From positions 1,471,212-1,529,154 of the forward strand of contig NC_057759.1 in NCBI RefSeq assembly GCF_004010195.1: a stretch of DNA of 57,943 nucleotides, read 5' to 3'. This stretch comes from Chiloscyllium plagiosum (Eukaryota). Positions 6,273-54,372 of this stretch are shown here, piece after piece (position 1 is the first letter of the stretch; the number at the start of each line of letters is the position of its first letter). The position numbers and the translations under genes were made by a program. The notes under the pieces are model-generated. The model worked only from the letters and a program-made list of their open reading frames with translations. It searched no databases and was not told where the DNA came from.

Positions 6273-7053
6273 CATTCAAAGTTCAAGTCTGCTGCTCTGG
6301 ATGTGTCTGATACCCCCACCCCTATCATCGTGGCGTTTCCAAAACAACTGCAGCGTGAGACATCCCATACACTCCCACAATGGTTACAGAATCTCACAAA
6401 GCCGGGCTGATGCATCGGGCAGGGGTCTCTTATTGTTGAGAGTTCGCTTCTCCATGGAGACTCCCTATCAGCCGTGCTCCCTCCATCCGGATCTCCAGTG
6501 GTTTGCAGCTCAGTGTCCATTCTGTCTATGGGGCCAGAAGGTTCAAGTTCAAGCTGCACACTCCAGGACACGTTCACCCTGAAAAGTAACCAGTAAAACT
6601 GCCTGCTTTCTGTCTGAGTGTCTCCCACCTGTCAGAACCGTCTGATAATTTCTGTTCTAAATTATTCAGAATGGGACATTCACGTGATCGTCCATTCAAA
6701 GAATGAGACAGATGATGCATTCCTCCCATTAAACGTGGACGAAATGAAAAGCTTAATCCTCAGATATGTACATCACAGTGAAGGAGAAGCAGATATTAAA
6801 TATCCAAAGAAAGCAAGCAGTCAAAATAGTTTGATAAATTCAAAACCCAGCGAAGTCCAGAACAGATTGATGGTCACACTGACGTGAAAGTAGCTTCCCC
6901 GGAAGGAAACGAGTGGAGTCAAATTGTGAAACACCGTTTCCAACATAAAGTTAAGAAGTTTGTTATCTGTACACAGGAGGTACATTGTATCGCTTCACCA
7001 GTCGTTGTATTGAATCAAACGAACACCCCCCAACCAATATGTCTTCTTGCTTC

Positions 7054-7173
7054 TTACTTCCGCGGAATATTCATATAAACGTTTCCGTCCCCTCCATCTT
7101 CTTCCTGCGAGGGCTCGCTGAGATTCAGTGTGGCGTATGTGATACAATAATCATCAAGGTCAGTCTTCGAATC
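7054..7173 (-). CDS. Receptor exon 14: terminal coding exon, ITIM ITYATL and NVYMNI
   Basis: Acceptor ttccattgcag, phase 0; DSKTDLDDYCITYATLNLSEPSQEEDGGDGNVYMNIPRK-TAA. Confidence 0.87.
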   Translation of the reverse strand, partial: DSKTDLDDYCITYATLNLSEPSQEEDGGDGNVYMNIPRK

Positions 7174-10100
7174 CTGCAATGGAATGATATTGGAAGGAAA
7201 TTGGAATCAAGTGGGAGCAAGAAGCTGAAGGGGAAGGAGAGGTCATAGGAGTACAGGTAACAATGAGTCTCAGAGGAAAATGGGAATCACCAGCAGGCAG
7301 TTGAAGGCCTGCAAGTCAGAAATCTGGCGGCAAAGTGATTCGGTCCCTATCTCTGAGCCAGGAGGGCAGGGTTCAAGTCCCGCCTGCTCCTGTGGTCTGC
7401 GATATGGACATAGAAGCAGGAAGGTGATGTTGGAGTGTGACAGGACTTTGGTGAGACCATAGTCTGCAGTTCCAATCTTTGCACTATTGTAAGGATGTGA
7501 TACACTGGAGGGGGTGCAGAGGAGATTCACCAAGATGTTGTCTGGCATGGAGCATTTCAGTGATGAAGTGAGGCTGGATAAGCACGGCTTGCTTTCTTTG
7601 GAGCAGAGTAGATGGAGGCGGTTTTGATTTTGTTTTCATTTACTTATGGGACGGCAGCATCGTGGTTGGGCCCAGTGTTTGTTGCCCTGTCTCCAGTTGC
7701 TCTCCTGAGCCACTGTGCTCACAACTTCTGAAGGTTAACTCACAATTCACTTAGGGAGTTAATTCCAGCATTTTAAAGCAGCGACACTGAAGGAATGGCT
7801 GATGTATTTCCAAAGGATGTTGAGTGGCTCAGAGTGGAGCACATAAGGGTTGGTCTTCCCGTCTGCTGCCCCTGTCCTTCCAGGTGGAATTGGCTGTGGA
7901 TTTGGAAGGTGATGTCTTAAGATGTTTTGGTGACTTTCTACAGTACATCTTGTAGAAAGTACACACTGCTGCTACCAACTGAGTGCAAATGACAACGGGC
8001 TGACAAGTATTTAACGTCAATATCAGTGATGTTTTAATAATGTACGAAGGGGAACTGGAACATCAACACTAATACTGCCCCAATTTTGAAACTCACTTGT
8101 CTCTGAGCATTGGAAGTGGAATGCGAAACAGCGAGCAATCTCCTCCATTAGTAAAGTGTTGCCAGTTATTTTTCATTGTGTTCAAAGGCAGACACAAAGT
8201 TGGGACGGAGGGAGAGCGGAGAAGGAGGATGCAGAGATGCATCAGTGTGATTTGGATAAGTTGAATGAGTGGACCAATGCACGACAGATGCAGTTTATTG
8301 TGGATCAGCGTGAGATTATCCAATTGAGAGCAAAAACAGGATGGTGAATTATTATCAGATAGTGATGGATTGGGAAAGGGTGAGGCGTAATAAGACTGGG
8401 TGCCCCTCATACACCAGTCACTGCAAGTGAACATTGCAGAAGCAGCAGGCGGTGAAGGAGGTAAATGGAATGTTGGCCTTCATAGTGAGAGGATTCGAGT
8501 CCAGAAGCAGGGATGTCTTGCTGCACTTGCACACGGTGAGACCATATCCTGGAGTACTGTGTGCGCAGTTTGGGTCTCCTTATCTGAGGAAGAATGTTCT
8601 GGCTATGGAGGGACTGCAGGGAAAATTTCCCAATATGATGTCTGGGATGGCAAGACAGACGGATGGAGATAGACTGTATTAATTAGGATAATATTCACAG
8701 CAGTTTCGAAGAATGACGGGGAAAGTCGTAGAATTGTATGAGGACTAAACAGGATAAACACAGGAAGGGTGTTCCTGATAAACAGGAGGGAGTACAGAAC
8801 CAGGACGTCACAGTCTGAAGGAGATGGAGGAGGACGGAGTTGGGGCATAATGCTTTCACATCGAGAGAGTGGGAGCCTGTGGAATTCTCGGCCACAGAAA
8901 GCCGTCATGGCCAGAACACGGAATGTTGTTCAGGAAGGAGTTGGATAGAGTTCTGAGGGGCTAAAGGGAGAAAATGGGGAACAGGAGACTGAGTTGGATG
9001 ATGCTGTTGAACGGGGAGAGTAGGTTGGAAGGACTGAATAACGTACTCATGCCTCTACATTTTATGACGTATTCTTCAGTTAGTCTGATAATAATCCAAA
9101 GTTCATGTTTTACACTGTGGATGCAAGGTATAAATCTACCTGCACATTCTGTGGCAATAGCCGTGGTCTATTTAGACATAAAATGTGGCATACCTTCTTC
9201 ACATCGGAGCAGAAAGCAATACTGTTGCCTGAAAATAAAACAGAAAAAGATGAGAACGAACTCGTTGTAGGCATTAGCGATTCGATCTGGACCCATTGAG
9301 GGCTGATCAACACTAAAGATGGAGCTGCATCTTGTGAAAGTGTAGCTGTGCCTTTGTCAATTAAAAAAAGAACAGTGCAACAATTTCTGAATTGTGTTCC
9401 TCTCAATCAATCCAGACATTTCAGATAATCGCATTTGGAAAAGTCGGCTCTGTTGAAATCCAGCAATTGGTCTTCTGACCATTAAGACGGTGTACCAGTT
9501 TGTACGATGCTTGTCAGTGCAACGTCTTTGACAGGCCGTCTTAATCTCGTCAGCCTTTGCGTCACTTGCTCAATAGTTGTTCATAAAAGACAGGAATGAA
9601 CTATTCAGGTTCCATATCTTTGGGTTTTAACTGCAGTATGCTGATCGTTCAGCGTGATGCAGCTGGCTGCATGGTTAGTTTTTGCAATGCATTATATGCC
9701 AACCTTTGCCATCAACATGGTTACAATTCCCACACCAGCTGAAGTTACCCTGAGGGACTCTCCTTCTGAACCTCTCCTCTCTCATGACGCACAATGATCG
9801 GCAAATTAAGTTTGATGATCCTCCCACTTCTCTCTCTCTCTCTCTCCCTCTGTATGTATGTGTCTGTCTGTCTGTCGGTCTGTCTGTCTCTCGCTGTCGA
9901 ATGAGAGGACAGGATAATGGCTTGGAAGAACATGGCTTTTACAGCTCATCCCCTGACACGGTGACTAGAATGTGTTCTGAGAGACAGATTTCATTGTAGA
10001 TAAGGCTAATTTCGATTCAAATGTCCCTTATAGGTATTGAGAAGCACCTGCATGATAATTGTAAGCTCAACTTTCTGAATAACAATATGATTGATGATGC

Positions 10101-10626
10101 TTTTATTTTCGCAGCTATCTCAAAACATTGAGTGGCAGTGTTTGGCAAATTGGCCTTGAGTATTATGTCACATAAACGGGACTTGCTTTCTCTCTCTTCA
10201 CAGATGCTGCCAGACCTGCTGAGTTTCTCCAGAATTGTCCGAATTTGTTTCAGACCTGCATCATCTGCAATTCTTAGATTTATGTGAAAATGATCTGTAT
10301 CTGCCTCAGAGAAGAATAATTTACGTGTCGCACTGCCATTCTCACCCATAGAATCCCTCTCTAATTGTTCTGTCAGTTTGTTCTGGATCACTGACAACAT
10401 ATAAATCATCTCCGAATTCGTTGTCTTTGCCCTATCCGTGGTAGAAAAGACTAGAGTTGATCAGATTAGAAGTTGTTTCTGATTGGCTGGTTTACTGACC
10501 AATCTTGGTAAGTGCTGGAGATTTTTTGGCGCATGCTCCAATCCCTCACAATCCCTTCACTGCAAGCACCAGACTACTGCATTTCCCTATTTGGAACTGG
10601 TCTCTCTCTCTCTTTCACTCTTTCTG

Positions 10627-10668
<42 letters not shown>

Positions 10669-10933
10669 ATCCCCAGCAGCTGGGATTGTGCTATTGTTGG
10701 AGCTCCTATGATTCCACCCTCCCCCCACCACCAACACCCACCCCTCCCATCCCATCTCACACGATCGTAGTATTGAAGCTAAGATCTTTACCGGGCTCTT
10801 TTCTCTTCTTGATGGTGACCTCTGAATAAACCAGATCCGCAGTGATGTTTTCTACAAAGGAATAGTGCCACAAGAAACACACATCAATCCGACAGCTTCA
10901 CTATAAAGGGCTAAATAATTCATAGATTAAATG

Positions 10934-11014
<81 letters not shown>

Positions 11015-11022
11015 NNNNNNNN

Positions 11023-11084
<62 letters not shown>

Positions 11085-14000: not shown

Positions 14001-17000
14001 AGAGTTAGGGTTAGGTTTAGAGTTTGGACTCGGGCTAGAGTTAGGGTTACGATCAGTATTACCTGTATCGTTAGAGTCAATGTTAAGGTTATGATTGAGT
14101 TACGTTTAAGTTTAAGTTTAAGGTCAGAGTTTGCATTAAGGATGGGTTTGAATTTATGGTTAGGTTTAGTGTGAGGGTAAGGGTTAAGGTTGAGCTAGGT
14201 TTGGGTTTAGGGTTTCGCTGCGGGCTAGGGTTCAGTTTATGTATCGGGTTAGGTCAATCTGCCCAGTGGATACTGAATAAATTTAAGGAAGAAAGAAACA
14301 TTGTTTTAACGAGTCATAGTTTAAAGAGAGTGAAGCACGAAAGTGAAGTTGATCCAGATGGATTGCATTAAATAACAGAGCAAGATCCTGAGGTGCTGAA
14401 TGGGGTCTTCCTGTTCCCGGCACTTATGGTCTTACGTCTCTCCTCCTCTCTAAGGTGCTCTGACACAGTGTGGTGGGGTGTGGTGGGTCACATTTACCGA
14501 TTCAGCAGGCTAACTGTGTGAGTGCTCTCCCTCCCTACTGTCAGGAACACTGCCTACTCCAGTTCCCGACCCACCACTTCCTTCCCTCGGCTTCCCCCGT
14601 TCAGCTGTAAGGTGACATTGTGGCGGGGATAGCCGTGTCATGGTGTGAGGATGTGGAACAAGTCCCATTCCCATGGGATGTTACAGACCTGTGGCCCTCC
14701 GGTAGATGTAGCAACCCGACACAAGCAGGCCAGCCATCAGCAGAACTGGGAGGAGCGATGCCATGATTTCCTTGGAATAGCTTCGAGCTGGAACCCAACA
14801 ACAATATTTAGCTCACGTTCACAAATTCACCAGGAAATTTTATCACACTAGCCCTGCCTGAGGTACACAGTTAACAGCAGACTGACCAACCCTCACATAT
14901 ATGTAACTCGCTGCCACTATGGAGGTTTCGAGAGTCTCACTGTGTGGGACAATCCGGCCCATTGAGCTACCTAACCAATTCCACTTTCCCATGCAGCATC
15001 CCGCCCACACAGCTTTCAATGTTATGATATTTCAAGTGCTGATCCAAGTATTTTGCAAATGTTGGGAGTTACCCTGTCAAGCAGTACATTCGAACCCTTT
15101 GGGTGAAACAATCCTCAAATCCCCCTTTAAACCTCCCGTCCTTCACTTTAAAATGACTTCCCCAACCCAGCCCTTGTTACTGACACTTTAACTATGGGGA
15201 ACAGTTGCTTCCTATTCCCCAGACTCTTCCCCTCACAATCATACACGTCTCTATTGGGTTCCCCTCTCAGCATTTACTGTTCCATAGAAAATATCCCAAG
15301 ATTATCCAGCATCCCTCTCTTCCTCGCTAAAATCCTCTATCCCAGTAACATTCTGGTAAACCTCCTCGGCCCACTGCCCTCTCCATGAGGCGTAAAATTC
15401 CAGATTTTTATTGCATTCAAATTCCACTATCTGCTTTTGGCGGGATCCCAGGAATACCACGCATCATCACTTTGGATCAATAGCCTATTATAATACCACC
15501 CAGCTATCACTTCCCCAAAAGAGATAGTTAACAGTGTCCAATTGGCACAGATTGAATGAGCGAATGGCCTTTTTCTGTGCTCTATCTATGTTTGATCCGA
15601 GTGTCACTGTTACCTCGCAGTGTGAATTTGATGTAGTCGCTGGTCACATTAAAAATCGTGTTGTTGGTTCCTTTGTTGATTGCTGCACAATGATACCTTC
15701 CAACATGGTCTCTCTGGAATGAATGAATGACCAGCTCACCACCATCAGCAGTCACATGGTAGTGTGCACTGCCGTTTCGTAGCAGCACATTGTCACGGTA
15801 CCAAAGGAACTGGGGCTCTGTGCCTTCCCTCACCTGACACCAGAGAACAAGGTGATCGCCGGACTGTATCTCAGTTCCGTTAATGAAGGAAATCAGCACA
15901 GCATCTGTGACAGGAACTGAGGAGAAAACACACCATGATCAAAAAGCATGGCGTTTATCCATTGATTCAGATCGTCAGTGGGAACCAGTTTGACACAATG
16001 ATTTTAAAAGAGAGTTAGGGAATTAGTTATTTTCAAAAACTAATGTAATGGATGGATATTATTAAATTGGAGTGAATATCGAAGAAATTTACAAGGATGT
16101 TGCAAGGATTCAACACTCTGAGTGTTAGGGAGAGGCTGGAATGGCGAAGACCTTTTCCTTTCAAGTGTAGGAGACTGAGGGGAGATCTCAAAAAAGTGTT
16201 TAAGATTATGAGAGGCATAATTGGGGTGAATGCACTCAGTCTGTTTCCCAGCGTTTTGGAGTCGAGGAATGAGGGCATCACTTTAAGGTTCGATGGGAAA
16301 GAATAAAAGGGAATCCTGAAGGACAACTCTTTTACACACGGGGTGGTACGCATATGGAATGAGCTGCCAGTGCAAGTCGTTGAAGCGGGGACATCAAAAA
16401 CTTTCAAAAGTCGCTTGGTCAAGTGGGATAGATACTTGAACAAGGAGAAGGATATTGGACCACGTGCAGGGACTTTGGGTTGCGCTGCTTTTGTTTCAAA
16501 AACTGTGCTGCTGGAAAAGCATTGTTGACGTTTCGAGCATAAGCTCTTAATAACATTCCTGATGAAGAGCTTATGCCAGAAACGTCGACTTCCCTCCTGC
16601 ACTAATGCTGCACAACCAGCTGTGCTTTACCTGCACCATATCTTTTGACTCTGATCTCCAGCATCTGCAGCTCTCTCTCTCTCTCTCTTTCTCTCTCTCT
16701 GTTGCTTTAGTCTAAGGTGCGGTTTTCAAGGAGAAAGCACCAGCTTTGAGTTGGCCTCAGCAACATTATTCCCTGAGCTGATGGTTCAGTTACTCTTTGG
16801 GAGAGAATCCTTGTTAACTCACCTATCACTGTGATCTCTATGTCTTCACTGTGCTGTGGGCCGGTCACCTCATTTCTCACTGAACAATGGTAAAACCCTT
16901 CATCTCTTCTGCTGATAGGCCCAATGTTGTAAACAAGCTCAGTGCTGTTGGAAAGCTCACTGTACAGTTCCACACTTGAGCTGTTGTAGAATTGGTAATA

Positions 17001-20000
17001 AATCGGCAGAGAACCATTGGAGACTGAACAGATTAAGCATCCTGTGTCTCCTTTGATTAGATCCTTTCCGGGTTGAATTATCAGTTCTGGTTTTGACACT
17101 GGAATTCCTGTAATCATAGACAAATGATAGATCATTGTATTTGGCGGGGTTAATTGCAAAATCAATTATGAACATCATCACAGTCACACAAAAACGCATA
17201 TCCTTTTGTTTTTGTTCATTGGGTTGGATGTGGGTGTCACTGGGTAGTCCAGTATTTCTTATTCATCCCTAATTACACAGAGGGCAGTTGACGGTTGTCC
17301 AGCTGCAATCAACCTTTGGAATTGAATTCAGATTCTCCCATCTGTTAAGGTGGGTTTTGAGCCCAGAATATGAGTCGATTCTCTGAATTCTTAGGGTATA
17401 GAACAGTACACATAGGGACTAGTCCTTCAACCCACCGTGTCTGTGCATGACTGTGATGTCATGCTATATGAATTCCACGTGAATACATGTGGTCTGTATC
17501 CCTTTACTCCTTAAATAATCAAGTGTCTGTCTCTATGCCTAGTAAACATTGATTCGTATTCATTTGTACCAACTGCTCTGGCAGTGTGTGCCAGGCACCT
17601 CCAACTCTCTGTGTAGAATCATGGAGTCATAGAGATGTAGCGCAGCTTCAGTCCAACTCGTCCGTGCCAAACAGGTATCCTAAATTAATCTAGTCCCATT
17701 TGCCAGCACTTGACCCTTATGTCTCTAAACCCTTCCAATTCATACACCCAACAAATGCCTTTTAAATGTTGTAATCTTACCAGCTTCCACCACTTCCTCT
17801 GGCAGCTCATTCCATAGACGCACCATCCTTTATTTGAAACCGTTATTCCTTAGGTCCCTTTTAAATTATCCCCCTCTTACCCTAAACGTATGCCCTTTAG
17901 TTTTGGACACCCCACCCCCCACCCATAGGATAAGACTTTGCCTATTTACCCTGGCCATGCCCCTCTTGATTTTATAAACCACTATAAGGTCACCTTTCAG
18001 CCTCCAATGCTCCAGAGAAATCAAACCCAGCGTATTCAGCCTTTCCCGACAGTTCAAATCCTCCAACCCTGGCAACATTCTTGTTTTTTGTTTCCTAAAC
18101 CTTTTCAAATTTCACAATATCCTTCCTTTCGGAGGGAAACCAGATTTGCACACATTATTCCAGAAGTGGTCTAACCTACGTTCTTTACAGCTGCAACATG
18201 ACCTCCCAACTCCTATACAAAATGCTGCAACCAATAAAGGAAAGCATACTAATCACCTTCTTCACTATCTTATCCATGTGCAAATCCACTTTAAGGGAAC
18301 TGTAAATCTGCACTCCAAGGTCACTTTGTTCAGCAACAGTCCCCAGGACCTTACAATTAAGTGCATAAGTTCTGCGTTGTATTGCCTCTCTAAAATGCAG
18401 CACCTCACTTTTATCTAAATTACACTCCAGCAGCCATCCTCCCGCCCATTGCCCCATCTAATCAAGATCCTGTTGTACTCCTAGATAATGTTTACTAGCA
18501 TATCCCCTTCAAACGGTCCTCCTCTCACACTAAAGCGGTGCGCCCCATCCTAGTATTTGACTTTTCCAACCTGGGAGAGAGACACTGACTATCCACTCTG
18601 TCAACGCCTCTCATAATTTTGTGTACGTTAATCAGGCCTCCCTACAACCTCCAGAGCCTTCGTGAAAACAATCCAAGTTTGTCAAACCTCTCCTCATAGC
18701 TCACATACACCAATCCAGGCAATATCCAGATAAACCTGCTTTGCACCTCTCGAAAGCCTCCACATCTTTGCTATAGTGTGGGCAACAAATCTACATATGT
18801 CCTCCAACCATGGTAGAACTAAAATCTTATACAGCTGCAATATGACTTGCCAACTTATATACTCATTGCCCTGACTGATGATGGCAAGCATGCCATATGA
18901 CTTCTTTACCACCTTATCCACTTGTGATGTCACTTTCAGAGAACTATGGACTTGCACCCCAAGATCCCTCTGTATATCAATGCTCCAAAGGTTCCTGCCA
19001 TTTACTGCATATTTTCCTCTTGCATTTTACCTCCCAAAAATGCATCATCTCACATTAGTCTGGATTAAAATCCATCTATGATTTCTGTGACTAATTTTCA
19101 GGCTGATCTAAATTATTTGACAACCTTTCTCACTGTCCACAGCAACATCAAATTTCATGTCATCTGCAAACTTATTAATTAGACATGGTAAGCGTAGGAA
19201 ACATGTTATTGATAATCGAGAGACATCCAGGGATCACAGTCTAAAGGAGATGGAGCAGGACTGCGATGGAGATGAATGCCTTCACCAAGAGAGTGGGGCG
19301 ACTGTGAAATTGTCTGCCACAGAAAATGGTCGGAGCCAGAACATTGAATGTGGTTCAAGCAGGAGGTGGATAGAATGCTTAGGGCGTAAAGGAAGAGAGC
19401 AAGAGGACAGGGGTCTGAGATGGAAGATCAGCCACAATCCTAGTGAATGGGCACATCAAACAGGAAGGACCGAATGGCCTGTTGCAATTTACATGTTTCC
19501 ATGATTTTCTGGGTACTGAATCCCACAGGCTCTTCACTCTGTGTGAAGACATTTCTCCCCATTTCAGTCCTAAATGCCAATACCCTGTGCTGTTTGCCTC
19601 TAGCTCTGTAATATACGTCTGTGAGATGTGGGGAGTGATGACAAATTGTCTCTATTCTGAACCTTTAACAGTTAAGAAATGGACCATGATAAATGATACT
19701 TACGCATGATGGACAAATCGAGCTGATTACTGCATTTCCACACCTTCCCATCTGTGACTTCACAATGATAAATACCCGAGTCTGTCGGACGAGCTGACTC
19801 AGAGATGTAATCACTGTGGTGCGATGGAGACTGGAGAACGATCCCATTTCTGTAAAAACTGTATTGTAAGGAAACTTGGGAGGGATTCGCTTCAACCCAG
19901 CACACCAGTTTGACCCGTTGGCCATCAAAAAGCTGTTCCTCAGGACGCACGGTCAACACAGGGACGGTGTACACCTCTGGAAAGCAGAAGGACATGTTTA

Positions 20001-23000
20001 TGTTTCAGCCTGAAGAGTGTCTGGCCTTGGGTACCCTCAGTGATCAGAACGAGAGCAAGAAAATCCCAAGACGGCGTTAGTGCAGGAAATTTCTAACAAT
20101 CCTTCAAGGCCTATCAAGGCTGTTAGCATCGTGTCAGCTCGAGGTCAGATTTAGTGACGATCGTGATTGCATTTGGAATGAATAAATACAGCTGCAGCAA
20201 GAGCATTGTACCCGATTCTTGAATCCACATTCTAGGAGGGACAGGATGGCACTGGGAGATGGTGCAGAGGGAGATTTACGGAGATATTGCCTTGGAGCTG
20301 TAGAGCTTTAGTAATGAAGAGAGATTGGATAGAATGGGATTGTTCTCCTTCGAGCAGAGGAAATTGAGACAAGGGTGAAGGTCATGATGGAGATGTATAA
20401 AATGATGAGGTGTGTAGATAGGAGGAAACCTTAACCAGTTGGTGCAGGGAGGGGGACATCGATTGAAGGTCATGAGCAGAAGGTTTAGAAGGGATGAGAG
20501 GAAACAAATTTTCACTCAGATTATCTGGAACTCACTGCCTGTTAGGGTAGGAGAGGTAGAAACCCCCATTGCATTGAAGAGTGTTTAGAAGTGCACTCGT
20601 GAGGCCGAGGCTATGGTGCCACATGTTCGGAAAATAGTGATTATAGAATAGTGAGGTGGCTGTTTCTGACTCTATGGATCGAAGGACCTTTCATTTGAGC
20701 TGGGAGTAATGACAGATAGTTACGTTTAATGGAAATTTGAATGCTGCTGCTCCTCTTCCTCAGACTGTAAACTGTGTTGATCGCTTCACAGGTGTAATTC
20801 CCAGAAATGTTCACAGCCGCTGCATTGATGGTGTAAATGCTGCCAAGACCAGGCACGGCCTCCAGGGCGACACTGTCTCTGTAAAATGAGTAGTGAAGCA
20901 GGACAAAGGGTTGTGCCACCGGGACAGTGCACGTCAGCGTGACTGGTAGCCCCTCGAATACTTCCGACGCCGGTTCCACCCTCAGCACGGGCTGGGCGAA
21001 GCGTTCTGGAATGTAACACACAATTGGGACTCATTAATCTACTGTTATTATCACGGAGCTAAAGGCACAATGGCGATGCGGAATGAAGGGTGTGAGCATT
21101 TACTGACAAAGAACGGGGGCGAGGGAGAAATTTTGTCTTTCTCTTGCTTTCCAAAGTTAAAATTCTTTTTGATGGCATTACAGTCATAGAATCATACAGG
21201 ACAGAAACAGAGATTTTGGCCGAACTCGTCCATGCTAACCAGGTTTGCCAAACTGATTTAATTCTATTTGTCTGTATTTGGCCCATGTCCCTCTAAAGCT
21301 TTGCCATTCACAAATTTATCCAAACGCCTTTTAAATGCTGTCGTTGTATCTGACTCCTCCAGTACTTCCTCTGGCGGCTCAGTCCATACATGCACCACCC
21401 TCATGCCCCTCGGGTCCTTTTCAAATTTTTCCTTCATCTTAAAGTTATGCCTTCTTGTTTTGGACTCCCCTACCCCTTGCTTTAATCACCTTTTCTCTGC
21501 CCTCATGACTTTATTAACCTCATTGAGGTTACCTCTCCGTCTCCAATAACCCAGCCTATTCTGCCTCTCCCCATAACTCAAAACCCTTTCAGTTTCGATT
21601 ATCCTGGGATGGGTACAACGCAAATACCAACTGTCTGTCCTCTTCGTGACCTTGTCCCATTCTCTCTCTGTGTGAGCCCGCAATCATCTCATAGAATGTG
21701 CCAGTCCAAGTAGTGATGTTGTCAAATGTTATCAATCACTGCCAGGATTATCAAAAGGATGGGGACAGTATGGTTTACACTTCAATTGCACATGGCATAT
21801 CGGGTCAGCATTGGATGTACTGTGCATTGATTTGGTCTCCTTACTTAAGGAATGATATAAGTTCATCACGAGACATTCAGGTGGTTTGTAATAGACTGTA
21901 AGACTATAAGATATAGGAATAAAAGAAGATCGGTTGGCTCATTGAGACTACTGAAAATGTGTTGCTGGAAAAGCGCAACAGGTCAGGCAGCATCCAAGGA
22001 ACAGGAGAATCGACGTTTCGGGCATAAGCCCTTCTTCAGGAATGAGGAAAGTGTGTCCAGCAGGCTAAGATAAAAGGTAGGGAGGAGGGACTTGGGGGAG
22101 GGGCTTTGGAAATGCGATAGGTGGANNNNNNNNNNNNNNNNNNNNNNNNNNNNNNNNNNNNNNNNNNNNNNNNNNNNNNNNNNNNNNNNNNNNNNNNNNN
22201 NNNNNNNNNNNNNNNNNNNNNNNNNNNNNNNNNNNNNNNNNNNNNNNNNNNNNNNNNNNNNNNNNNNNNNNNNNNNNNNNNNNNNNNNNNNNNNNTCCCT
22301 TGGGGCCTTGGAGGGAAGTAAGGGGGGAGGTGTGGGTGCAAGTTTTGCATTTCTTGCGGTTGCAGGGGAAGGTGCCGGGAGTGGAGGTTGGGTTGACGGG
22401 GGTGTGTGGACCTGATGAGGGAGTCACAGAGGGAATGGTCTTTTCGGAACGCTGATAGGGGAGGGGAGGGAGATATATCCCTGGTGGTGGGGTCCGTTTT
22501 GAGGTGGCGGAAATGACGGCGGATGATACGTTGTACATGAGGTTGGTGGGGTGGTAGGTGAGGACCAGTGGGGCTCTGGCCTGGTGGCGGTTGGAGGGGC
22601 GGGGCTCAAGGGCAGAGGAGCGGGAAGTGGAAGAGATGCGGTGGAGGGCATCGTCAACTACGTCTGGCGGGAAATTGCGGTCCTTGAAGAAGGAGGCCAT
22701 CTGGGTTGTACGGTTTTGGAACTGGTCCTCCTGGGAGCAGATGCGGTGGAGACGAAGGAATTTGGAAAATGGGATGGCATTTTTACAGGGGGCAGGGTGG
22801 GAGGAGGTGTAGCCTAGGTAGCTGTGGGAGTTGGTTGAGACTGCTCCAACATTCAATGAATTCATGTCTGATGCGATCATCCTCCAATCCCCTTTCCTGC
22901 TTTTTATTCCACATAATCTCCCTTCTTAAAAATCTTCTTTCTCTCTCTCAGCCTTGAATGCACTCTACACCCCAGCCAGAACAGCCCTCTGCGGCAAAGA

Positions 23001-26000
23001 ATTTCACAGATTCACTCCCTTCAGAGAGAAGTTCCACCTCATCTCTCTCTTCAATGGGCGATCACCAACCCTGCCCCCTAATATTCTGAGAGAAGGCCCT
23101 TCTGTTCCCAGACTCTACCAAACAAGAGGAAAACATTTCTCTCTGCATTTCCCCTGTCAACTTCCTCGAAGAACCTTCAACAAATCGCTCATTCTTCTAG
23201 ACTCCACTGAGGACAGGCCCAACCCACTCCACCTTTCCACCATCAAACAGTACCTCCAGAAGAACAGCCTCCAATTCCCAATCTACAGTCTTTCAGATAC
23301 GGCGCCCCAAAATATTCACACTATTCCCCTACCGTCTTTCTAGTGTGTTGTAGAGTATTAGCAAACGTCCTCCTCCTCACCCCACCCCGGGTTCATGTTC
23401 CATGAGCTCCTCTGTTCTTCCTGCCACATCGCAAAAACGAACATTTCCCCACATTTTCTTGTATCTGCCAGGTTTGTGCCCAATTCCTTACAATCAATCT
23501 GTATCCCATTGCAGACCCTCTGTGTCATACTCGTCACTTGCCTTGTGAACTATTTCTATATCTTCCACAAACTTGGTGGAAGTCCAATCCATTGACCGGC
23601 TCAGACCCGGGGGGGGGGGGGGGGGTGGGGTGGGGGGTGGCTGGATTGCCGCTTGAAAAAAAAAGATGGAAAGGCTGTAGACCGTGAAGAACGTAACCTT
23701 AGAGAATAAAGTAATCTTAATCAATTGGGCAAACAGCCACATGGCGTGTAATGTGGTTAAATGACAGGATAAAATGTCTTTTTCATGGAACAAACGAGAG
23801 CAGGACTAATAGAGTGAATGGTAGAACCCTGGGTATTCTTGTTGAACAGACAGACTGAGTGTTGGCGGTGCATAGTTCCTTGAAGCTTGTGTTGCAAATA
23901 GACAGTGGGAAAGAAGCTTGCATGCATTGTTCAGGCCATTGAGTACATGACTTGGAACATCATTTTCCGAATGTACAGGATGTGTTTGACGTCAACTTTG
24001 GAGGACTGCGTGCAATTCTGGTCACCTTATTACTAGGAAGATGTTATTAAACTGGAAGGTTGACAGAAACAAAATGTGCAACAATGTTACTGAGACCCTA
24101 AAGTGAGGCTGGGACTGCTTTCGCTGGAGTGTTGGAGATTCAAAGTTTATAAAATCATGTAATGCATAGCTATGATGAATAGCCATGGTCTTTTCCACAG
24201 TATAGGTGAGTCTGAAACTTGGAGGGGTTAGGGTTTGATATGCGAGGGGAATGATTTAAAAGGGATGTGAAGAGCAACGTTTTCACACACAGGGTACCGT
24301 GTGGATGGAAAGAGCTGCCAGAGAAACAGGTAGGGATAGATACAACTACAATATTAAAAAAAATGGACAGGTCTATGACTGGAAAAGCTTTAGAGGGATT
24401 TGCACTCAATGAAATTGGGACTCATTCAGCTCAGGAAAGCTGGTTGGCATGGACAAATTGGGCAGAAAGGCCTGTTTCCATGTTGCATGATTCCGTGACT
24501 CTATTTAGCAATGATATACTAAGACCATAGACATGAGTCATGTCAACATATTAAAACTTCCGCCAGATTTCACCAGAGATACAGGGTTGTCTTCTGAGGA
24601 GAGATTGAACAGGTCATAGCTTAGAGTATGAGATGTTGTTTCGTGTCAAGCTCAGTCGGCTGGATGGCTGGTCTGAGTTGCAGATGGAGACTATGGTGCG
24701 GGTTCAATTCCAACACCAGTTGAGGTGACCACGAATGATTCTACATCTCCACCTCTCCCCTCTACTGAGGCGTGGTACCCCTCAGATTCGTCCACCACCC
24801 AGTCCCCTCTCTCACTGATTAAAGAGTGGGACCATGGTGACTTTACTCATCCGATGTTAAAGGGACGATTAACAAAGACGATGGGGACAGGATGTCCCCT
24901 CATATGGGACAATCTGGTACGAGACGTCGCTGCTTCAGTAGAAGGGTCTGGGGACAGATTCCAAACAGAGGTGAGGACGAATGGCTTCTCTCAAAGACAG
25001 GTGGGCAGGGTGGAAGGTAATGAGTGTAGAGCGAATGAGCTCGGGTTATTTTCTCTGGAATAGACAAAGTTGAAGGGGTACCTGGCAGAGTTGTGTAGGA
25101 TTATGGACAGGATGAATTGGAAACAGCTTTTCCCTTTAGTTGAAGGGTCAGTAACAAGGAACACATCAGTTCCATGTGAAAGGCAGGAGGCTTAGAGGGG
25201 GATTGAGGATTGTTTCATCTATGGGATGGTGGGGGTCTGGAATGCACTGCCTGGAAAGTTAGTTGAGGCAGGAAAACAGAAGCTTTAAAAGGTAAATGGG
25301 TGAGCAATTCAAGGGACATGGCTTTCAAGACAATGCGGAAAAGTGGGTTTGAACAAAGGTCCACCTTTATTATGGATAAGTCCGAATGTTTCCTGGTGTT
25401 TAAATTAACAATTGAGACCAGTATGCACATTGTCTACCACAGATTGCAAAATCAAGTACGTACCTTGTACCTGAACTTTAACATTTCGTGATTCAGACCA
25501 ATCGATTTTACAGCTGTACCATCCACTGTCATCGGTGCTGTTTACTTTAATGCTATATGATGATTCACGTCCAGGGAGCCACATTGAATGGATCTTCTTG
25601 CCATTTCTATAAAAGCCAAAGTCCTTCTTCCACCTATGATCGTATTTGTACCGACAATTCAGTTTTAGTGTTTCTCCCTCCAAAGGTGAAACTGGGACAA
25701 CATGGAAAGCCACATTTCTATCTAAATCAAAGGTAAAGTTGCATCATTACAGCTCACCATAGGCATTTGTTTCATTGGAAACTGCTAAAAAAAATCGTGA
25801 TCATTGATCATTTATTGCCCAAGCACATTTTCAAGTATCGGCCAGCCAATCCCCAATATTATATACAATCCAGTCCAGAGAACTACTATCAGTTTGTTTT
25901 CAACTTCCCTGGAGTGTTAACTACAATTTTGGACCCCTAACCTGAGGAGAGGTCACAAGACCATGATAAACAGAAGCAGGAGTATGCAATTTGGCTATCA

Positions 26001-29000
26001 CGTCCCCTCCACCTTAAAGCGATCAGGCCATAAGAATATGAACAGAATTAGCTCGCTCATCCTATCGAATCTGCTCCTCTAATCATGCGATCATGTTGAT
26101 CTGATCATTGTCAACTCCACTTTCCTGCCTTTTTGTTCCGTAAACCTCGATTCCCCTCCCAGCTTTAAAATCTGTCTATTTTACCCTCAAACATATTAAA
26201 TGAACCAGCCTTGACAGCCCTCCGGAATAAAGAACGCCAAAGACTCACTTCCCTCAGAGAGAAGAAATTTATCTTCATCTCCATCTTTAATGGGCAATTC
26301 CAAACGCCCCCGCCCATCACCACGCCCGCCCCCCTCCCGAGCCCCTATTCTAAGATGATGGCCCTCTGATCGATGCCTCACCCACACAAGAGTAAACAAC
26401 TTCTCTCCAAATATACCCTGTCATGTACCTCTAACAATCTTCAAAAAGGCAGCTTCTGATTCTACTAAACTTCAGTGAGTGCGGGCCCAACCTAGTCAAA
26501 CGCTCCTCGTGAGAAATTACTAACTCCTATGTGAGGTACCAAACTTAACATAAGTGACTGACTGAGCAAAACTAAAGTTTCAGCATTAAATCATGTTGAA
26601 ACATTTGCATTTGGTTGAAAATTGGTTTGGAGGTCAAGGAAATGGTACAGTTTTGGTCGCCACATTACCAGAAGGCTTTGGAGAGGCAATTGAACTTGTT
26701 TATCAGGGTAGTGCCTGGTTCGGAGGATATTAACTAAGAGGAGATATTGCACAAATTCAGTTTGTTCTTGCTTGAATGTCAGAAGGAAAAGGATGACCTG
26801 ATTGAAGTTTATAAAATTATGAGCTGTATGGATTGAAAGGAATGTCAGAGCCTTTTTCCCAGGGTAGGAACGTCAATTACTCAGAGACATAGGTTTAAGA
26901 AAAATAAAAGATGATTCTAAGAAGATGTAAGGAGTACCTTCTTTTCCAAAGAGGGTGGTAAATACCTGAAATTCACCGCCAGAAGATGTGGTGGAAGCAG
27001 ATACAATAGCAATTTTTAAGGGGCGTTTGGCAGATAAATGACCAGGCAGAAAATAGAGGGACATGGACAGCCTAGAGGGAAAGGGTTTCAGTTTAGATAG
27101 GCATCATGTTGCATCACAGTCTTGTTAGGCTGAAAGGACTGTCCTGTAGTGTACTATTCTTTGAAAACTGTGCATTCCACTTCCATGCAATTTTTAAAAA
27201 TTGTAAATGAAAGTCAAATTTCACTTACCCGTGACGACAACTTTAACAGTTTCACTCTTTTTCCATGAGTTGTATATCTCACAGTGATAAGACCCGCCAG
27301 TTTCATTGTTCGCGAGTGTTTCGTAATAATTACCCCATCCATAAGCGAAAAACTGTCCATTTTTGTACCAAATAACAGCCCGTACTTTTCCTGTCCCACA
27401 TTGAAATTTTAAAGTCTCTCCTTCTTTTACAAATCCATTTGTGGGATATACATTAAGCACGGGCCTTCCGAAAGCTGAAGAGAGAGAGAGAAGCAGAAAG
27501 GTTCAGTATCCAATCATTGCATCATGTTGACCTCTCACTACTATAAACACAGTGTGCAGTTCAGCCTCAGTGTCCCAGTATAGAGAGTTCCAGTTCAAGT
27601 TGTCTATTGACCAAAGGGTACAGTCCAGACAAAAAAGTCTGAACTCGGTGAATTTAGTTGGCACCTAACCGTTGATTGCTTGACGCATCACCTCTGCAGC
27701 GCCAACCATTTAGTCAACATCTTTATTTTTCAAAGGGCCAATTGTTGACAGGCAATAGTTGATTTACTGTTCGGAAGAGTTAACTGCACAGATTATGTTT
27801 AGCTTTATTAGAACCAGTTGATTACAATGTAAAAACATTTTTGCAATGTTCAATGCTTCGATCAAATCTCAACTCAACCTGTGCAGCACAATGAGAAAGT
27901 TCACAATATTATCTTTCTGAATTTTTCAGAAAAAAAACCCTATCCGCTGCAAAGCTTTACTTAATTAACAAGGCAATGGTTATCTCCAATAAATGATAAT
28001 GTAATCATTGCCCCTTGACAATTAATGGTGCTACCCTCACTGAATAATCTTCACAATAAATATCCTGCAAGTTACCATTGAGAGAAATCTAACAATCGTG
28101 CTTTGTTTTTCAACTGTGTTACGATCCCTGAACTGCCTCACTATCAACATGCTGGGGGTTACTCTTTTTAAAATTCATTTTCTTTTAATTCATTCACTAG
28201 ATTAGGGAGTCGCCGGTTAGGCCTGCATTTATTACCAACTCCTAATTGCCCGTAGGGCAGTTAAGAGTCAACCATATTGCTGTGGGTCTGCAGTGACATA
28301 TAGATTAGACCAGGCAATGATGGCAGTTTCCTTCCCTTAAGGAAATTAGTGAGTCAAATGGGTTTTTCCAAGATTTGGAGATGCCGATGTTGGACTGGGG
28401 TGTACAAAGTTAAAAATCACACAATACCAGGTTATAGTCCAATAGGTTTAATTGGAAGCACGCTAGCTTTCGGAGCGACGCCCCTTCATCAAGTGATTGT
28501 CACCTGATGAAGGAGCGTCGCTCCGAAAGCTAGTGTGCTTCCAATTAAACCTATTGGACTATAACCTGGTGCTGTGGGGTTTTTCCAACAAATTATAGAC
28601 ATTTATTGAATTCAAATTCCACCATCTGCTGTGGGGGTTTTGAACCCGGGTCCCCAGTACATTGTCTGACGCTTTGATTTAAGAGTCTGGTGATAACGAC
28701 TCTAGGTCATTGCCACCCCTTCTGAGAGAAGGCAATGTCCTCTACTGCGTGGCAATTTAACTATCGCCTCTTCATAGTCAATGACACCATCACTGAATCT
28801 CCTCACTATCAACACCTTGGGGGTTACTATTAACAAGAAACTCAGTTGGACTCACCATGCCAATATCATAGTGACAAGAGAAGGCCAGTGGCTGGGAATA
28901 CTGCAGCAACTAACTTACCTCCTGACTTCGCCAAGGCCTGTCCACTATCGACAAGGCACAAGTCAGGAGTGTGATGGAATGCTCCCCACTTGGCTGAATG

Positions 29001-32000
29001 AGTGCAGCTCCAAAAAACAGCACAACACCATCCAGCTACAATGCAGCCCCCACTTAATTGGTACCACATCCTCAAACATTCACTTCCTCAAATATCGATG
29101 CTCAGTACCAGCAGTTTGTACCTTCTACAAGTAGCACAGCAGAAATTCACTAGAGATGCTCAGACAACACCTCCAAAACTCAGTAGCACTTCTATCAGAA
29201 GGATAAGAGCAGTCAATCCATAGGAACACAGCCACCTTCACGTTACCCTCGAAAGCGCTCAGCATCCCAACTTGGAAATGTAACGGTCATTCTTCAGTGT
29301 CACTGGTTCAGAATCCTGGAATTCCCTCCCCAAGGGTATTGTGGGTCTTCCTACAGCACTTGCCGGAATGGCTCAAGAAGACAACTCAATCCCCACCTTC
29401 TCAAAGAGAGCAACTGGGAATTTTGTCAACAAATACTGGGTTCCGCCAGTGATGCCCATATCCCACCAGTGAATTAAATTTCATGTTCCATGTGTCTGCC
29501 CATTATAGCTGCCCGTATTTCCCTCTGTTTTCCTCCATCACTTTCCTCCTTGTTTTGTTACCGTTCCACGCGTCTGATCACCTATTATGGGACTGAGGAG
29601 CAGAACTGAAGTTAATGTCCATTTATATTTATCATAACAGTTATCACAGCTAGTTCTGATCTGTACGAGGCACCATTTAATGCTGATTCCTGTCAAAAAG
29701 AGACAGAATTGTACATTTGCCATATTGTTGTTTACAAATATATTGTGTCGATGCTTACTGCCATTAACTGCCAGTGTCATTATCTTGAATTTTGCTGGCA
29801 AATTTGTAATGTGCCTTTAATCTTTAGCTTCCCAAACCCTTTTTAAAAGGAAAAGAATGCGTCAATTTCATTAAAACGGTCACTTTACTCTCTCGCTTAT
29901 CTTATCCATCAGTTTGTCCATCATTGAAACTGCCTTCCTAATCGTATTTAAGACCTGAAGAGCATAAGAATAGGAATAGGCCATTCTGACCCTTGATACT
30001 GCTCTGAAATCCAATTGGATCGTGGCTGATCTGACCTCCCTCACATACAGTTTCTTGCCTGATCCCTATAATCGTTGATTCCCTCCACATCCGCCCCCCC
30101 CCCCCCACCCCGCCAATAAAACAAGAATCTATGTCAGCCTTAAATATACACAAGGACTCTACAACCCAAAGCAGTTGTCTGTGGCAAGAATTTCCAAAGA
30201 CTTCCACACCTGTGAGAGAAGATAATCCTCCTGATCTCAGTCTTCAATTGTTGCCCCTTTATTCTGAGACTGTGCTCTCTTTCCTTGACAGTCCCATGAG
30301 GGGGTAACATCCTCTCAGCATTGACCCTGCCAAGCTCTATATGTTTCAATGATATCACCACCTCATTCTTTAAACGTCAGTGAGTAGAGCCCTAACCTGT
30401 TTAGACATTGCTCAAAAAGACAATCTCTCCTTCCCAGAGATCATCCTTCTCTAGATTGCCTCCAATGAAATGGTGCACTTCCTTAAATAACGGCAGTAAA
30501 AGCTCTCAGTGCTCAAGGTGTGGTCTCCCCAGCAACATGTACGTTTGCAGAAAGACTCCCCTACTCTTTAGTAATAATAGCCAAATTTCCCTCCCCACTG
30601 TGTGCTAGTTTTCTGTGTTTCATACAGAACTTCCCCACCCCCAAGTCCCTTTATGCTGCAGCTTTGTGCATTTTTTCTCCATTTAAGTAGTACTCTGATC
30701 TGTTCTCCCTTCTAAAATGAATGGAAACTTATGTTTCCCAAACAACCTGTTTTAAATCTCATGCTCATTTGAAGAGTTGTGGTGGAGTTAAACTTTGATG
30801 CAGATTTACTGAATAGACTCTGTCCAATGTGACTAAGTCATTGGCCCTCTTTTTAACTATTGGTACATCCACGTGGGATAAGAGTTGAACATGATTCCAG
30901 TGTCTGGCCTTACAGAGGATATCCCGAACTCTGGACAGAAAAACAGGGATTAAATCACAATTGGTTCATATTTAAAAGGTCACTGAAAAGATGTGCACAG
31001 CACGACTTCAGATTTCCAAATGATTATCCAAAACTAAACTTGCAGTTCCCTTACCTTGGGTGATCCGACAGAGAGCAAGAATCACTGGAAAACATAAGGG
31101 AATTGAAATGCCAATGTAATTATTTCTGTAAGTGTCCTGGAAACGGCAAAGCATAGACAATGTCAAAGCAAATTAAGTGGAGAAGCAGCAGAGAAACAAC
31201 ACCAGTCCTACCTGGAACTCAATAGTAACTGTTAATTGTTCACTCCCATTGAAGTGGACACAGAAATATGAATTTATATCAACTGTATGAGCACCCATTG
31301 GTTTCTTCGTCCTTGTCGCATTCGAATTGCAAATTTTGCTTTGTATCTTTCTGGATTTTATTTATCCCCTCGTTTTCTCTTCCTGCTTTCTCTCTGCTTA
31401 GCTTCCCATTTTATTTGCAAATGTTTTACACAAGTAAGGGTCTCTGGAAATTTAGATTTCTTGTAAAATAAAGTACGTTTGGGAAGATGATTGCAAAAGG
31501 AATAACGTCACATGATTGCGCGTTTCTTGCCTCTGTGGATTCTTAGAAACCCCAAAAGTCAGACAAGTCTCACCAATGACCACACTGAGACTTCTAGCTC
31601 AGCGACGAAAGGCTACTGTTACAATGAAGCATCTCTGCATCTAAAATTACTTCGCAAGAGAGCAAGAATCGTCTCCAATCTCAATTCAGAGCCAGAGAGG
31701 TCTACAGCATAGAAGAAGGCTCATCAGCTCATCGGGTCTGTGCCAGTCTAAAACATACACCTCGCTATTCTCGAATTCCATTTAAACACCACTTGGCCCC
31801 TAGCCTTGGTATCACAAATTGACATCTAAATGCTTCTTCAATGTAAAGAGAGTTTCTGCCTCTCCACCCTTTACAGGCAAGGACTTCCAGATTCCCCACC
31901 ACACGCTGGGTGAAAATGTTTTCCCTCACATTCCATTCTAAACCTCCTGGCATTTGTTTCCATCTGCCTCATCCATGTCATTAATCCCTCCATCAAAGGG

Positions 32001-32722
32001 GAAGTTTACCTCATGTCTATTCTATCTAGGCAACTTCATCATTTTATACATCTCAATCATGTCCTACCCCATCCCCTCTCCCAAACCCCTCGGCTCTAAG
32101 GAAAACAACCCCAGCCTCTTGAAGTTCCCTACATCAGTGAAATTCTCCAGTCCCCAAAGCAACATCCTCGTTAATCTCCTAATTTTGATGAAAAGTTTTG
32201 GCATACCCATTCACTGCTCAGTGATATATCTCACCTCTATATTGTTGCTGATTGTCCTTCCCTTTGCTGGATTCTGAAATTCTACTGATCCGCCCATGAC
32301 TTAACATTTTTAGGTCGATTGCACATGTGGCGTGGACAATTTGGACCGAAGGGTCTATTTCTGTGCTGTACATCTCTATGACTCTATGTGTGTAACTTGT
32401 ATCCTTTTCCGAGAAGATCAAATAATATTGCCCGAAGCGGGAACAAAGGATACGATGAAATGATTTTTCTTCTCTCTCTTTCCCAAAATATTATCGTTCA
32501 TGTTGCCAACTTGTTTCATTCCAGAATTTAGCCAAGTTTGATTTTTTTTTAATGTTGGCCACAGTTATTAGATCCTGCTTTTTGGATCTGAGAAGGAAGT
32601 GTAGGGCTGTCTGCTGTAGAATTCAATCTCACGTGACCGGGGAACAGCGCAGGTTTGTCATGGTTAAGGTCCATTAGTAACACACACTTACAGAGGATCA
32701 GAAGCACGGAGGTCAGCGTCAT
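7054..32722 (-). CDS. Fc receptor-like (FCRL-type) Ig-superfamily inhibitory receptor; 14 coding exons, 710 aa; join(32692-32722,31055-31084,27229-27474,25464-25721,20724-21005,19704-19976,16823-17107,15614-15916,14689-14787,13634-13664,13009-13088,10792-10851,9194-9228,7054-7173)
   Basis: All 13 introns are GT-AG and the phases chain into one open frame (31+30+246+258+282+273+285+303+99+31+80+60+35+120 = 2133 nt) from ATG to TAA. Signal peptide, 6 Ig domains with canonical Cys pairs, TM helix and ITIM tail. Domains resemble FcR/FCRL D3-type (F..PVL..P..EG.PVTLTC...YSFYRD) and D5-type (IPVSKP...GSLPIYYQFY). Exact orthology not determined. Confidence 0.88.
8020..9070 (+). mobile_element. CR1 LINE ORF2/3' remnant
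   Basis: LQCDLDKL.EW-like segment and VKEVNGMLAFIVRGFESRSRDVLL..FGSPYLRKNVLAMEG. Confidence 0.8.
9194..9228 (-). CDS. Receptor exon 13: cytoplasmic (GNSIAFCSDVKK)
   Basis: Strong acceptor ttttattttcag, donor GTATGC; phase 1 to 0, as required to join exons 12 and 14. Confidence 0.8.
10600..10669. repeat. (CT)n(CA)n microsatellite
   Basis: Visible directly. Confidence 0.92.
10792..10851 (-). CDS. Receptor exon 12: cytoplasmic, ITIM LVYSEV
   Basis: Acceptor cctttgtag, donor GTAAAG; 60 nt; ENITADLVYSEVTIKKRKEP. Confidence 0.85.
10934..11083. repeat. (GATA)n microsatellite with a small N gap (11015-11022)
   Basis: Visible directly. Confidence 0.97.
11860..12510 (+). mobile_element. CR1 LINE 3' remnant
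   Basis: MEYKSCQIILQLLKILVRPQLEHCVLFWSPHY. Confidence 0.8.
13009..13088 (-). CDS. Receptor exon 11: cytoplasmic, ITIM LEYAVV
   Basis: Acceptor ctttccttcccctttctactag, donor GTGAGT; phase 2 to 1; ITGSQPSGEGTAASNLEYAVVGAAHNA. Confidence 0.85.
13634..13664 (-). CDS. Receptor exon 10: cytoplasmic (GNSSTASQPR)
   Basis: Strong acceptor ctctctttccctgcag, donor GTAAGT; phase 1 to 2, matching the next exon. Confidence 0.8.
13840..14255 (+). repeat. Degenerate (TTAGGG)n-like hexamer array
   Basis: Repeated ttaggg/ttaagg/ttagag/ttaggt/ctaggg units over ~400 bp. Confidence 0.8.
14689..14787 (-). CDS. Receptor exon 9: transmembrane exon (ARSYSKEIMASLLPVLLMAGLLVSGCYIYRRAT)
   Basis: Acceptor gggttccag; ~22-aa hydrophobic stretch followed by RR stop-transfer; 99 nt, phase 1-1; weak donor GTCTGT. 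Not in the supplied ORF track in this frame. Confidence 0.85.
15614..15916 (-). CDS. Receptor exon 8: Ig domain 6
   Basis: VPVTDAVL..GDHLVLWCQVREGTEPQFLWYRD..GRYHCAAIN; 303 nt, phase 1-1. Confidence 0.93.
16495..16672. mobile_element. Decayed palindromic Penelope-terminus element
   Basis: Inverted gacgtttcgagcataagctc / ctgatgaagagcttatgccagaaacgtc, and shared tail ctgatctccagcatctgcag. Confidence 0.7.
16823..17107 (-). CDS. Receptor exon 7: Ig domain 5 (FCRL D4/D5-like)
   Basis: RIPVSKPEL..LICSVSNGSLPIYYQFY..DEGFYHCSVRN..SEDIEITVI; 285 nt, donor GTGAGT. Confidence 0.93.
17390..19180 (-). mobile_element. Nested CR1 LINE remnants
   Basis: MLPGLEDLNCRERLNTLGLISLEHWRLKGDLIVVYKI and VHSSLKVTSQVDKVVKKSYGMLAII. 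Confidence 0.82.
19704..19976 (-). CDS. Receptor exon 6: Ig domain 4 (D3-like)
   Basis: QVYTVPVLTVRP..GQRVKLVC..LQYSFYRNG..DSGIYHCEV; 273 nt, donor GTAAGT. Confidence 0.93.
20724..21005 (-). CDS. Receptor exon 5: Ig domain 3 (FcR D3-like)
   Basis: ERFAQPVLRVEP..EGLPVTLTC..YSFYRD..SGNYTCEA..KRSSSIQISIK; AG/GT bounded, 282 nt. Confidence 0.93.
22007..22044 (-). ncRNA. Minimal type I hammerhead ribozyme motif at the Penelope 3' end
   Basis: CUGAAGA-A-GGGC(UUAU)GCCC-GAAA-C-GUC; intact core, palindromic minimal helix III, short helix I. Confidence 0.7.
22126..22295. other. Assembly gap (170 N)
   Basis: N run. Confidence 1.
23700..24510 (+). mobile_element. CR1 LINE 3' remnant
   Basis: Decayed ORF2 C-terminus; NVFTHRVPCGWKELPE; 3' tail. 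Confidence 0.7.
25464..25721 (-). CDS. Receptor exon 4: Ig domain 2
   Basis: DRNVAFHVVP..EGETLKLNC..FYRNGK..DSGWYSC..VKVQVQ; acceptor tttag, donor GTACGT; 258 nt. Confidence 0.92.
27229..27474 (-). CDS. Receptor exon 3: Ig domain 1
   Basis: AFGRPVLNVYP..EGETLKFQC..VIWYKNG..GGSYHC..VKVVVT; acceptor ctcttcag, donor GTAAGT; 246 nt, phase 1-1. Confidence 0.92.
28372..28576. mobile_element. Palindromic non-autonomous element with inverted hammerhead pair, inserted in a SINE
   Basis: ~75-bp inverted arms (~28420-28494 and 28501-28576); 12-bp TSD gggtttttccaa at 28360-28371 and 28577-28588. Confidence 0.8.
28501..28535 (+). ncRNA. Minimal hammerhead ribozyme motif
   Basis: CAC-CUGAUGA-A-GGAGC(GUC)GCUCC-GAAA-GC-UA-GUG; helix I CAC/GUG, 5-bp helix II. 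Confidence 0.7.
28790..29480 (+). mobile_element. LINE (CR1/L2 clade) 3' remnant sharing its 3' tail with the DeuSINE-like elements
   Basis: TLGVTINKKLSWTHHANII; ends cagtgatgcccatatcccac..gaattaaa. Confidence 0.6.
31055..31084 (-). CDS. Receptor coding exon 2: 30-nt leader mini-exon (LILALCRITQ)
   Basis: Acceptor ttttccag, donor GTAAGG, phase 1-1. Joins exon 1 and D1 into MTLTSVLLILLILALCRITQA-FGRPVL. Confidence 0.78.
32692..32722 (-). CDS. Receptor coding exon 1: leader part 1 (MTLTSVLLIL + 1 nt)
   Basis: AAAATG start, 31 nt hydrophobic, donor GTAAGT, phase 1. Confidence 0.8.

Positions 32723-53810: not shown

Positions 53811-54372
<562 letters not shown>

Follow-up and report, generated by a model that had tools for sequence, protein, structure and literature searches.

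We analyzed a window of 57,943 nucleotides from the bamboo shark Chiloscyllium plagiosum (C50:1,471,212-1,529,154; positions below count from its first letter). The window holds a minus-strand gene of 14 exons (32722-7054; Table 1). Its joined coding sequence of 2133 nt encodes 710 amino acids and ends in a single terminal stop. All 13 introns are GT-AG and phase-compatible; their phase is 1 for every intron up to C1 and then 2, 1, 1 and 0. The translation is identical, letter for letter, to RefSeq model P0179 (XP_043539724-726), which bears out the original prediction of 14 phase-compatible exons encoding an intact 710-residue membrane protein. Five RefSeq protein models exist at the locus, including isoform X2 (P0003), which is the same protein without Ig exon 6. 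RefSeq already lists the gene under the automatic name FCRL5-like, and it is one of the copies that make up a multigene family.

The six Ig exons were seen as open frames. The leader, membrane and tail exons had to be retrieved by splice-site scans, as expected from the prediction that most of them would be hidden from a track of open reading frames. Alternative small tail exons that came up in these scans were dropped, because RefSeq and the paralogues back only C1-C5. Support for the splicing comes from the RefSeq models and from conservation: the Chiloscyllium punctatum model P0008 (708 aa) matches every part of the protein, at 80% identity in domain 1, the least conserved domain between the sister species, and at 89-96% in the other parts. 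Among the joints listed (15 from four runs on 12950-32900, 4 from three runs on 4600-10900), none matched an exon junction; repeats dominate in these runs, and about 2% of run X6 was read. The C2 acceptor (13088, minus strand) apparently lies 6 nt upstream of the site in C. punctatum and the paralogues, which results in two extra residues.

Table 1. Coding exons of the receptor gene, in order of transcription
Feature	Positions in window	Strand	Remarks
Exon 1, coding part, leader S1	32692..32722	-	31 nt, ATG at 32722; matches RefSeq P0179
Exon 2, leader S2 mini-exon	31055..31084	-	30 nt, not 21
Ig domain 1	27229..27474	-	D2-like; best FcR matches are D2 of FcgRI/II and FceRI
Ig domain 2	25464..25721	-	D2-like (weak); top dN/dS, 0.87
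Ig domain 3	20724..21005	-	FcR D3 type
Ig domain 4	19704..19976	-	Second D3-type domain
Ig domain 5	16823..17107	-	D4/D5 type (type common to PECAM1 d5/d6)
Ig domain 6	15614..15916	-	Membrane-proximal type of amphibian, reptile, bird and gar FCRLs; absent from isoform X2
Transmembrane exon	14689..14787	-	Core without charged residue
Cytoplasmic exon C1	13634..13664	-	31 nt
Cytoplasmic exon C2	13009..13088	-	ITIM 1 LEYAVV, Y630
Cytoplasmic exon C3	10792..10851	-	ITIM 2 LVYSEV, Y648
Cytoplasmic exon C4	9194..9228	-	35 nt
Last coding exon	7054..7173	-	ITIM 3 ITYATL (Y684), terminal YxN (Y704), stop

The leader of 21 residues is a two-exon signal peptide on exons of 31 and 30 nt, and S2 is the only mini-exon candidate with strong sites in the intron between S1 and domain 1. 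A split leader had been put forward as a hallmark of the FcR/FCRL family. The split is there, but S2 measures 30 nt against 21 nt in mammals, so this evidence is weaker than claimed. The departure from the 30/21-nt leader rule of mammalian FCRL1-6 bars only the narrow filing of the gene. According to the available text of PMC2413239, the two-exon signal peptide is invariant among the XFL genes, whereas the 30/21-nt rule is true of only a fraction of them. The white and basking shark proteins (P0021, P0023) have shorter leaders, which would suit an S2 of 21 nt.

The ectodomain consists of six Ig domains with 11 N-glycosylation sequons. The tail of about 110 residues contains LEYAVV, LVYSEV, ITYATL and a terminal VYMNI. 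Features of the inhibitory class are thus present, namely an uncharged membrane segment and tyrosine motifs spread over separate tail exons. An AlphaFold model (12-row alignment; pLDDT 75, pTM 0.42) shows a helix at 574-596 besides six beta domains, and its tail is disordered; the top ranks of a Foldseek search with it were unrelated multi-Ig chains, with an rmsd near 30 A.

Two histone genes lie in the same window. An intact H2A gene occupies 53811-54200 (minus strand), and an H2B gene without its N-terminal half occupies 55471-55641 (minus strand). The latter reads 56 codons, starting with an ATG right after a TATA-like box, and a histone stem-loop lies downstream. A histone gene beside an FcR-like gene recalls the human FCGR1/HIST2 neighbourhood. 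We did not count the H2A neighbour as synteny, because histone clusters are too common.

Domain types, constraint and ligand

Each Ig exon encodes one domain and is of phase 1-1. Pfam assigned all six to an Ig family, five above a curated cut-off and domain 2 below it. All six domains score best with FCRL classes, in a best-class test that is blunt for D4/D5 types: three of the six domains of the PECAM1 gene on C24 likewise score best with FCRL classes. Domain 1 matches D2 of FcgRI (2.5e-6), and domains 3 and 4 match its D3 (7e-11 and 3e-13). The original prediction spoke of D3- and D5-type motifs; domain 5 suits D4 about as well as D5 or better, and its best-class scores are 99-108 with FCRL D4 versus 99 with PECAM1 d6. 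Domain 6 finds its counterpart in the last domain of frog, caecilian, kiwi, turtle and gar FCRLs and groups with the last domain of a tortoise FCRL (support 98/87). It may be the sixth subtype that PMC2413239, in its available text, called Xenopus-specific.

Class tests of the domains found no D1-type domain in the gene, while paralogues carry one, and the N-terminal D1-D2 tandem of classical Fc receptors is missing. We rejected a CD22/siglec or CEACAM identity, as there is no N-terminal V-set: domain 1 has 81 aa, with an Ig_2 match and no V-set match at E 0.1.

In order to compare constraint along the protein, we computed dN/dS by the Nei-Gojobori method on local alignments of four to five paralogues. 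The ratio is 0.69 for domain 1, 0.87 for domain 2 and 0.47-0.35 for domains 3-6. Because it is higher in the two outer domains than in domains 3-6, the outer pair is the likely binding end. We note that all values are below 1, which makes relaxed constraint as good an explanation of the gradient as positive selection.

The gene had been proposed as a candidate Fc receptor. This proposal gained no positive support: only 3 of the 20 IgG-contact residues of FCRL5 are identical in the shark gene (3 are unaligned), and the outer domains are the least constrained. Spelled out, the gene would be a true inhibitory Fc receptor that binds immune complexes of shark IgM, IgW or IgNAR and provides feedback to B cells, as human FCRL5 does with IgG. 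Both outer domains do resemble D2 of classical Fc receptors (domain 2 weakly), paralogues are apparently on B cells, and the title of a 1988 report names an Fc receptor activity for shark IgM. Human FCRL5, moreover, binds IgG through its D1-D3 (available text of PMC12757038). Yet even mouse FCRL5 reportedly binds no IgG, the shark gene has no D1-type domain and hardly any of the contacts, and its outer domains are the most divergent part, in a family whose members differ in the outer domains they carry. We therefore regard an immunoglobulin ligand as unlikely on this comparison of sequences, though it is the strongest of the competing readings. The fast evolution of the two outer domains fits a variable ligand better than a conserved Fc. 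Together with the few identical contacts and the lack of IgG binding by mouse FCRL5, it leads us to favour a ligand that is variable and not an Ig, either microbial or polymorphic self, to which we would give about an even chance. That the ligand is something else again is doubtful, if somewhat less so than an antibody.

Relation to the FCRL lineage and to PECAM1

The homology ranking, the domain order and the tail support the view that this is an inhibitory receptor of the FCRL lineage in a shark, as originally predicted. The best PDB match of the whole ectodomain is human FCRL5 (E 9e-77, a score inflated by the repeated FCRL5 domains), and PECAM1 is absent from the 57 PDB matches. Outside sharks, turtle FCRL3 (7e-57) and gar FCRL3 (3e-39) both rank above PECAM1 (7e-32), and the nearest named relatives are amphibian, reptile, bird, gar and mammalian FCRLs. 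Of 20 proteins picked among the 150 matches listed, 17 go by Fc receptor-like names and 3 by generic ones, and PECAM1 does not occur. Half of these 20 are frog, caecilian, kiwi and mammalian proteins (7 named FCRL). No protein under the name LITR, the teleost receptors to which the original prediction also linked the gene, turned up in the searches.

The tail gave a consistent picture. Compared with shuffled sequences, it aligns to turtle and alligator FCRL tails with z-scores of 4.9-11.8 (8 of 8), versus -1.2 to 1.3 for PECAM1 (10 of 10, several of these tails being short isoforms) and at most 2.3 for CD22-type tails (5 of 5). Scores with mammalian FCRL3/5 reach only 0.5-7.3. The last three tyrosine motifs are in register with those of gar, turtle and mammalian FCRL3. 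All 6 turtle FCRL3 tails and 6 of the 8 mammalian ones end in the YxN motif, versus 0 of 10 PECAM1 tails.

The amphibian XFL genes (inhibitory TM2 class) and the FCRL3-like genes of turtle, alligator, kiwi and gar share with the shark gene the two-exon leader and the domain series D2-D3(n)-D4/5-last domain. Their membrane segment is likewise uncharged, and their tail has two ITIM-type motifs that align with those of the shark and ends in a YxN. The shark gene differs from them in having no D1, two D2-like outer domains and an S2 of 30 nt. Human FCRL3, FCRL4 and FCRL5 also combine D2, D3 and D4-5 domain types with ITIM tails, but identity is about 25%, the type of domain 6 is missing from mammals, and the mammalian S2 has 21 nt. 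The mammalian FCRL3/4/5 genes are expressed in B cells.

PECAM1 (CD31) is the other family to be weighed. It has six C2-type domains like the shark gene, related d5/d6 types and an ITIM tail; its tail is unrelated and its scores are lower. We rejected an orthologue of PECAM1 itself, since that place is taken by a gene on C24 and the tail z-score is at most 1.3. The C24 gene (G000:C24:48.06-48.10 Mb; L018, L022, L023, L025) is likely the shark PECAM1: it groups with PECAM1 d1 (96/87), d2, d3 (99/98) and d5. It has six Ig exons, two of them d5-like, so the last exon may belong to a neighbouring gene.

None of the six domains joins a PECAM1 clade in a 96-row tree, but AU tests do not reject the grouping of domain 6 with PECAM1 d6 (p 0.11) or of domain 3 with PECAM1 d3 (p 0.37). 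In the same 96-row tree, no domain of the window stands beside a bony-vertebrate clade with starred support. For domain 3 with tetrapod FCRLs, the support there is 84/67; single-domain trees have fewer than 100 columns and are weak, and their bootstraps had not settled. Among four markers of human 1q21-23, UFC1 and COPA lie on unplaced contigs, the PIGM family on C29, and PRCC was not found.

These results leave some room for another origin, namely a branch peculiar to sharks that arose on the PECAM1/MILR1 side of this ancient domain family. The likeness to FCRL would then reflect shared ancestry and not membership. The plan of PECAM1, which also comprises six Ig domains, a split leader and several tail exons, counts in its favour, as do the PECAM-like names that RefSeq gives to many paralogues, the AU tests and the nearly equal scores of domain 5. 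We consider this origin improbable, because PECAM1 is accounted for on C24 and because the tail, the pair of D3-type domains and domain 6 all follow FCRL. The D1-type domain of the paralogues does so too (97/95 in one tree, more weakly in the 96-row tree). Taken as sequence evidence, the data make the gene very probably a member of the FcR/FCRL lineage, with no claim of orthology to any mammalian FCRL.

The family, its expression and a proposed role

A search of the genome with domain 5 returned 27 matches: C50 carries 19 of them, at 17 loci, unplaced contigs carry 5, and C22, C24 and C35 have one each. In nine C50 copies, among them this gene, domain 5 is complete and free of stops, with at least 72% identity. 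Many C50 copies have stops or frameshifts, several are broken outside domain 5, and the set of outer domains differs between paralogues, some of which have a D1-type domain. The 10 membrane exons found in 19 scanned loci all have an uncharged core, three of them with Arg/Lys only at the cytoplasmic edge.

Several other members or neighbours of the family were noted. A more distant subfamily at G000:C50:5.0-5.4 Mb (L075-L083) combines D1-type, D2-like and D5-type exons with a candidate S2 of 30 nt; in both of the copies seen, its D1 exon is split between frames. In a divergent five-Ig member at G000:C50:2.515-2.526 Mb (L010, L026), the second domain is of D1 type and the membrane exon uncharged, and a copy at G000:C50:6.40 Mb (L072, L073) yielded, within 30 kb, no exons other than D1-type and D2. 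Two Ig exons at G000:C22:53.595-53.598 Mb (L017), one of them D4/D5-like, are possibly C17orf99- or MILR1-related. The unplaced contig G000:C90995 (L074) carries repeated CD22/siglec-like Ig exons.

The family is not limited to this species. Ten close picks among the 150 matches listed are all elasmobranch (catshark, horn shark, sevengill, smoothhound, white and basking sharks, stingray and electric ray; relatives at 37-43%) and all named Fc receptor-like; no holocephalan is among them. Nine of the ten have a membrane segment, in each case uncharged, and ITIM tails. The RefSeq names of shark FCRLs are automatic, given without phylogeny or function, and their numbers 2, 3, 5 and 6 do not mean orthology.

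No activating partner was found in 14 further loci, a search that short activating genes without these domains could escape, and no activating NxxR-type partner was seen among the shark loci and proteins examined. A zeta-family search had a single match, on C12, which we take to be CD247 by its motif. UFC1, the neighbour of the FcR-gamma gene, lies on an unplaced contig, so the single match does not amount to an absence of FcR-gamma.

For expression we used published single-cell data. In the supplement of PMC11372145, LOC122544513 and LOC122544517 stand among the rows listed as B-cell markers (log2FC 4.5 and 4.7; 48% versus 3% and 43% versus 4% of cells expressing). LOC122544517 carries the exact RefSeq name of paralogue P0013, and the order of IDs fits LOC122544513 as another paralogue; both assignments were made by name and ID order only. 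Two paralogues thus appear to be B-cell markers. Section 9 of the same paper describes fcgr1a-like, fcrl3 and fcrl5 as highly expressed in B cells and gives no IDs. In the rows listed of its shark marker sheet, we saw no Fc receptor-like name and no ID assignable to this gene. By analogy with the paralogues, the gene itself is likely expressed in B cells. That this copy, in spite of its intact reading frame, has hardly any expression or is redundant, as part of a family whose genes are quickly born and lost, is the least credible alternative, for the broken C50 copies and the gene's absence among the shark marker genes listed in the PMC11372145 supplement are set against an intact C. punctatum orthologue, purifying selection on domains 3-6 and the five RefSeq protein models.

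Three ITIMs and an uncharged membrane segment point to inhibition through SHP-1/2, and YxN is a Grb2-type site. From this established biology, we propose an inhibitory mechanism. The fast-evolving outer domains would engage a ligand, likely a variable one and not a conserved antibody Fc. The receptor would then cluster near the B-cell receptor, where a Src-family kinase would phosphorylate Y630, Y648 and Y684. The phosphorylated tyrosines would recruit SHP-1/SHP-2 and antigen-receptor signalling would be damped, and the terminal YxN may recruit Grb2. With a probability of roughly 0.7, the gene encodes an intact six-Ig, three-ITIM receptor, likely of the FCRL lineage and likely of B cells, that would damp antigen-receptor signalling upon binding a likely variable ligand.

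A bolder possibility combines two propositions: that the FCRL toolkit as a whole, with its D1-D6 domain types and its three-tyrosine tail, is older than the split between sharks and bony fish, and that this all-inhibitory B-cell family includes a receptor for shark IgM or IgNAR. Antibody feedback in B cells would then have existed before activating Fc receptors and the FcR-gamma chain. We think this combination rather unlikely, slightly more so than an antibody ligand for the present gene.

Part of this was already known, as RefSeq gives the FCRL name and a 2024 single-cell paper, in its available text, names fcrl3 and fcrl5 in shark B cells without a homology test. Within the literature searched, which includes the available text of PMC6795676, PMC5278576, PMC7404264 and PMC10247546, we found no paper that analyses shark FCRL genes. 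In the text available to us, PMC4016189 (2014), PMC5742104 (2017) and PMC13337447 (2026) state that cartilaginous fish lack FcRL genes, and they raise the question of how sharks handle Fc-dependent functions. Against this claim of absence in reviews, the gene is intact and likely a member of an elasmobranch-wide inhibitory FCRL-like family, and not a new kind of system. It offers a clean full-length construct for tests of binding and signalling. If its membership holds, the origin of the family moves back to the ancestor of living jawed vertebrates.
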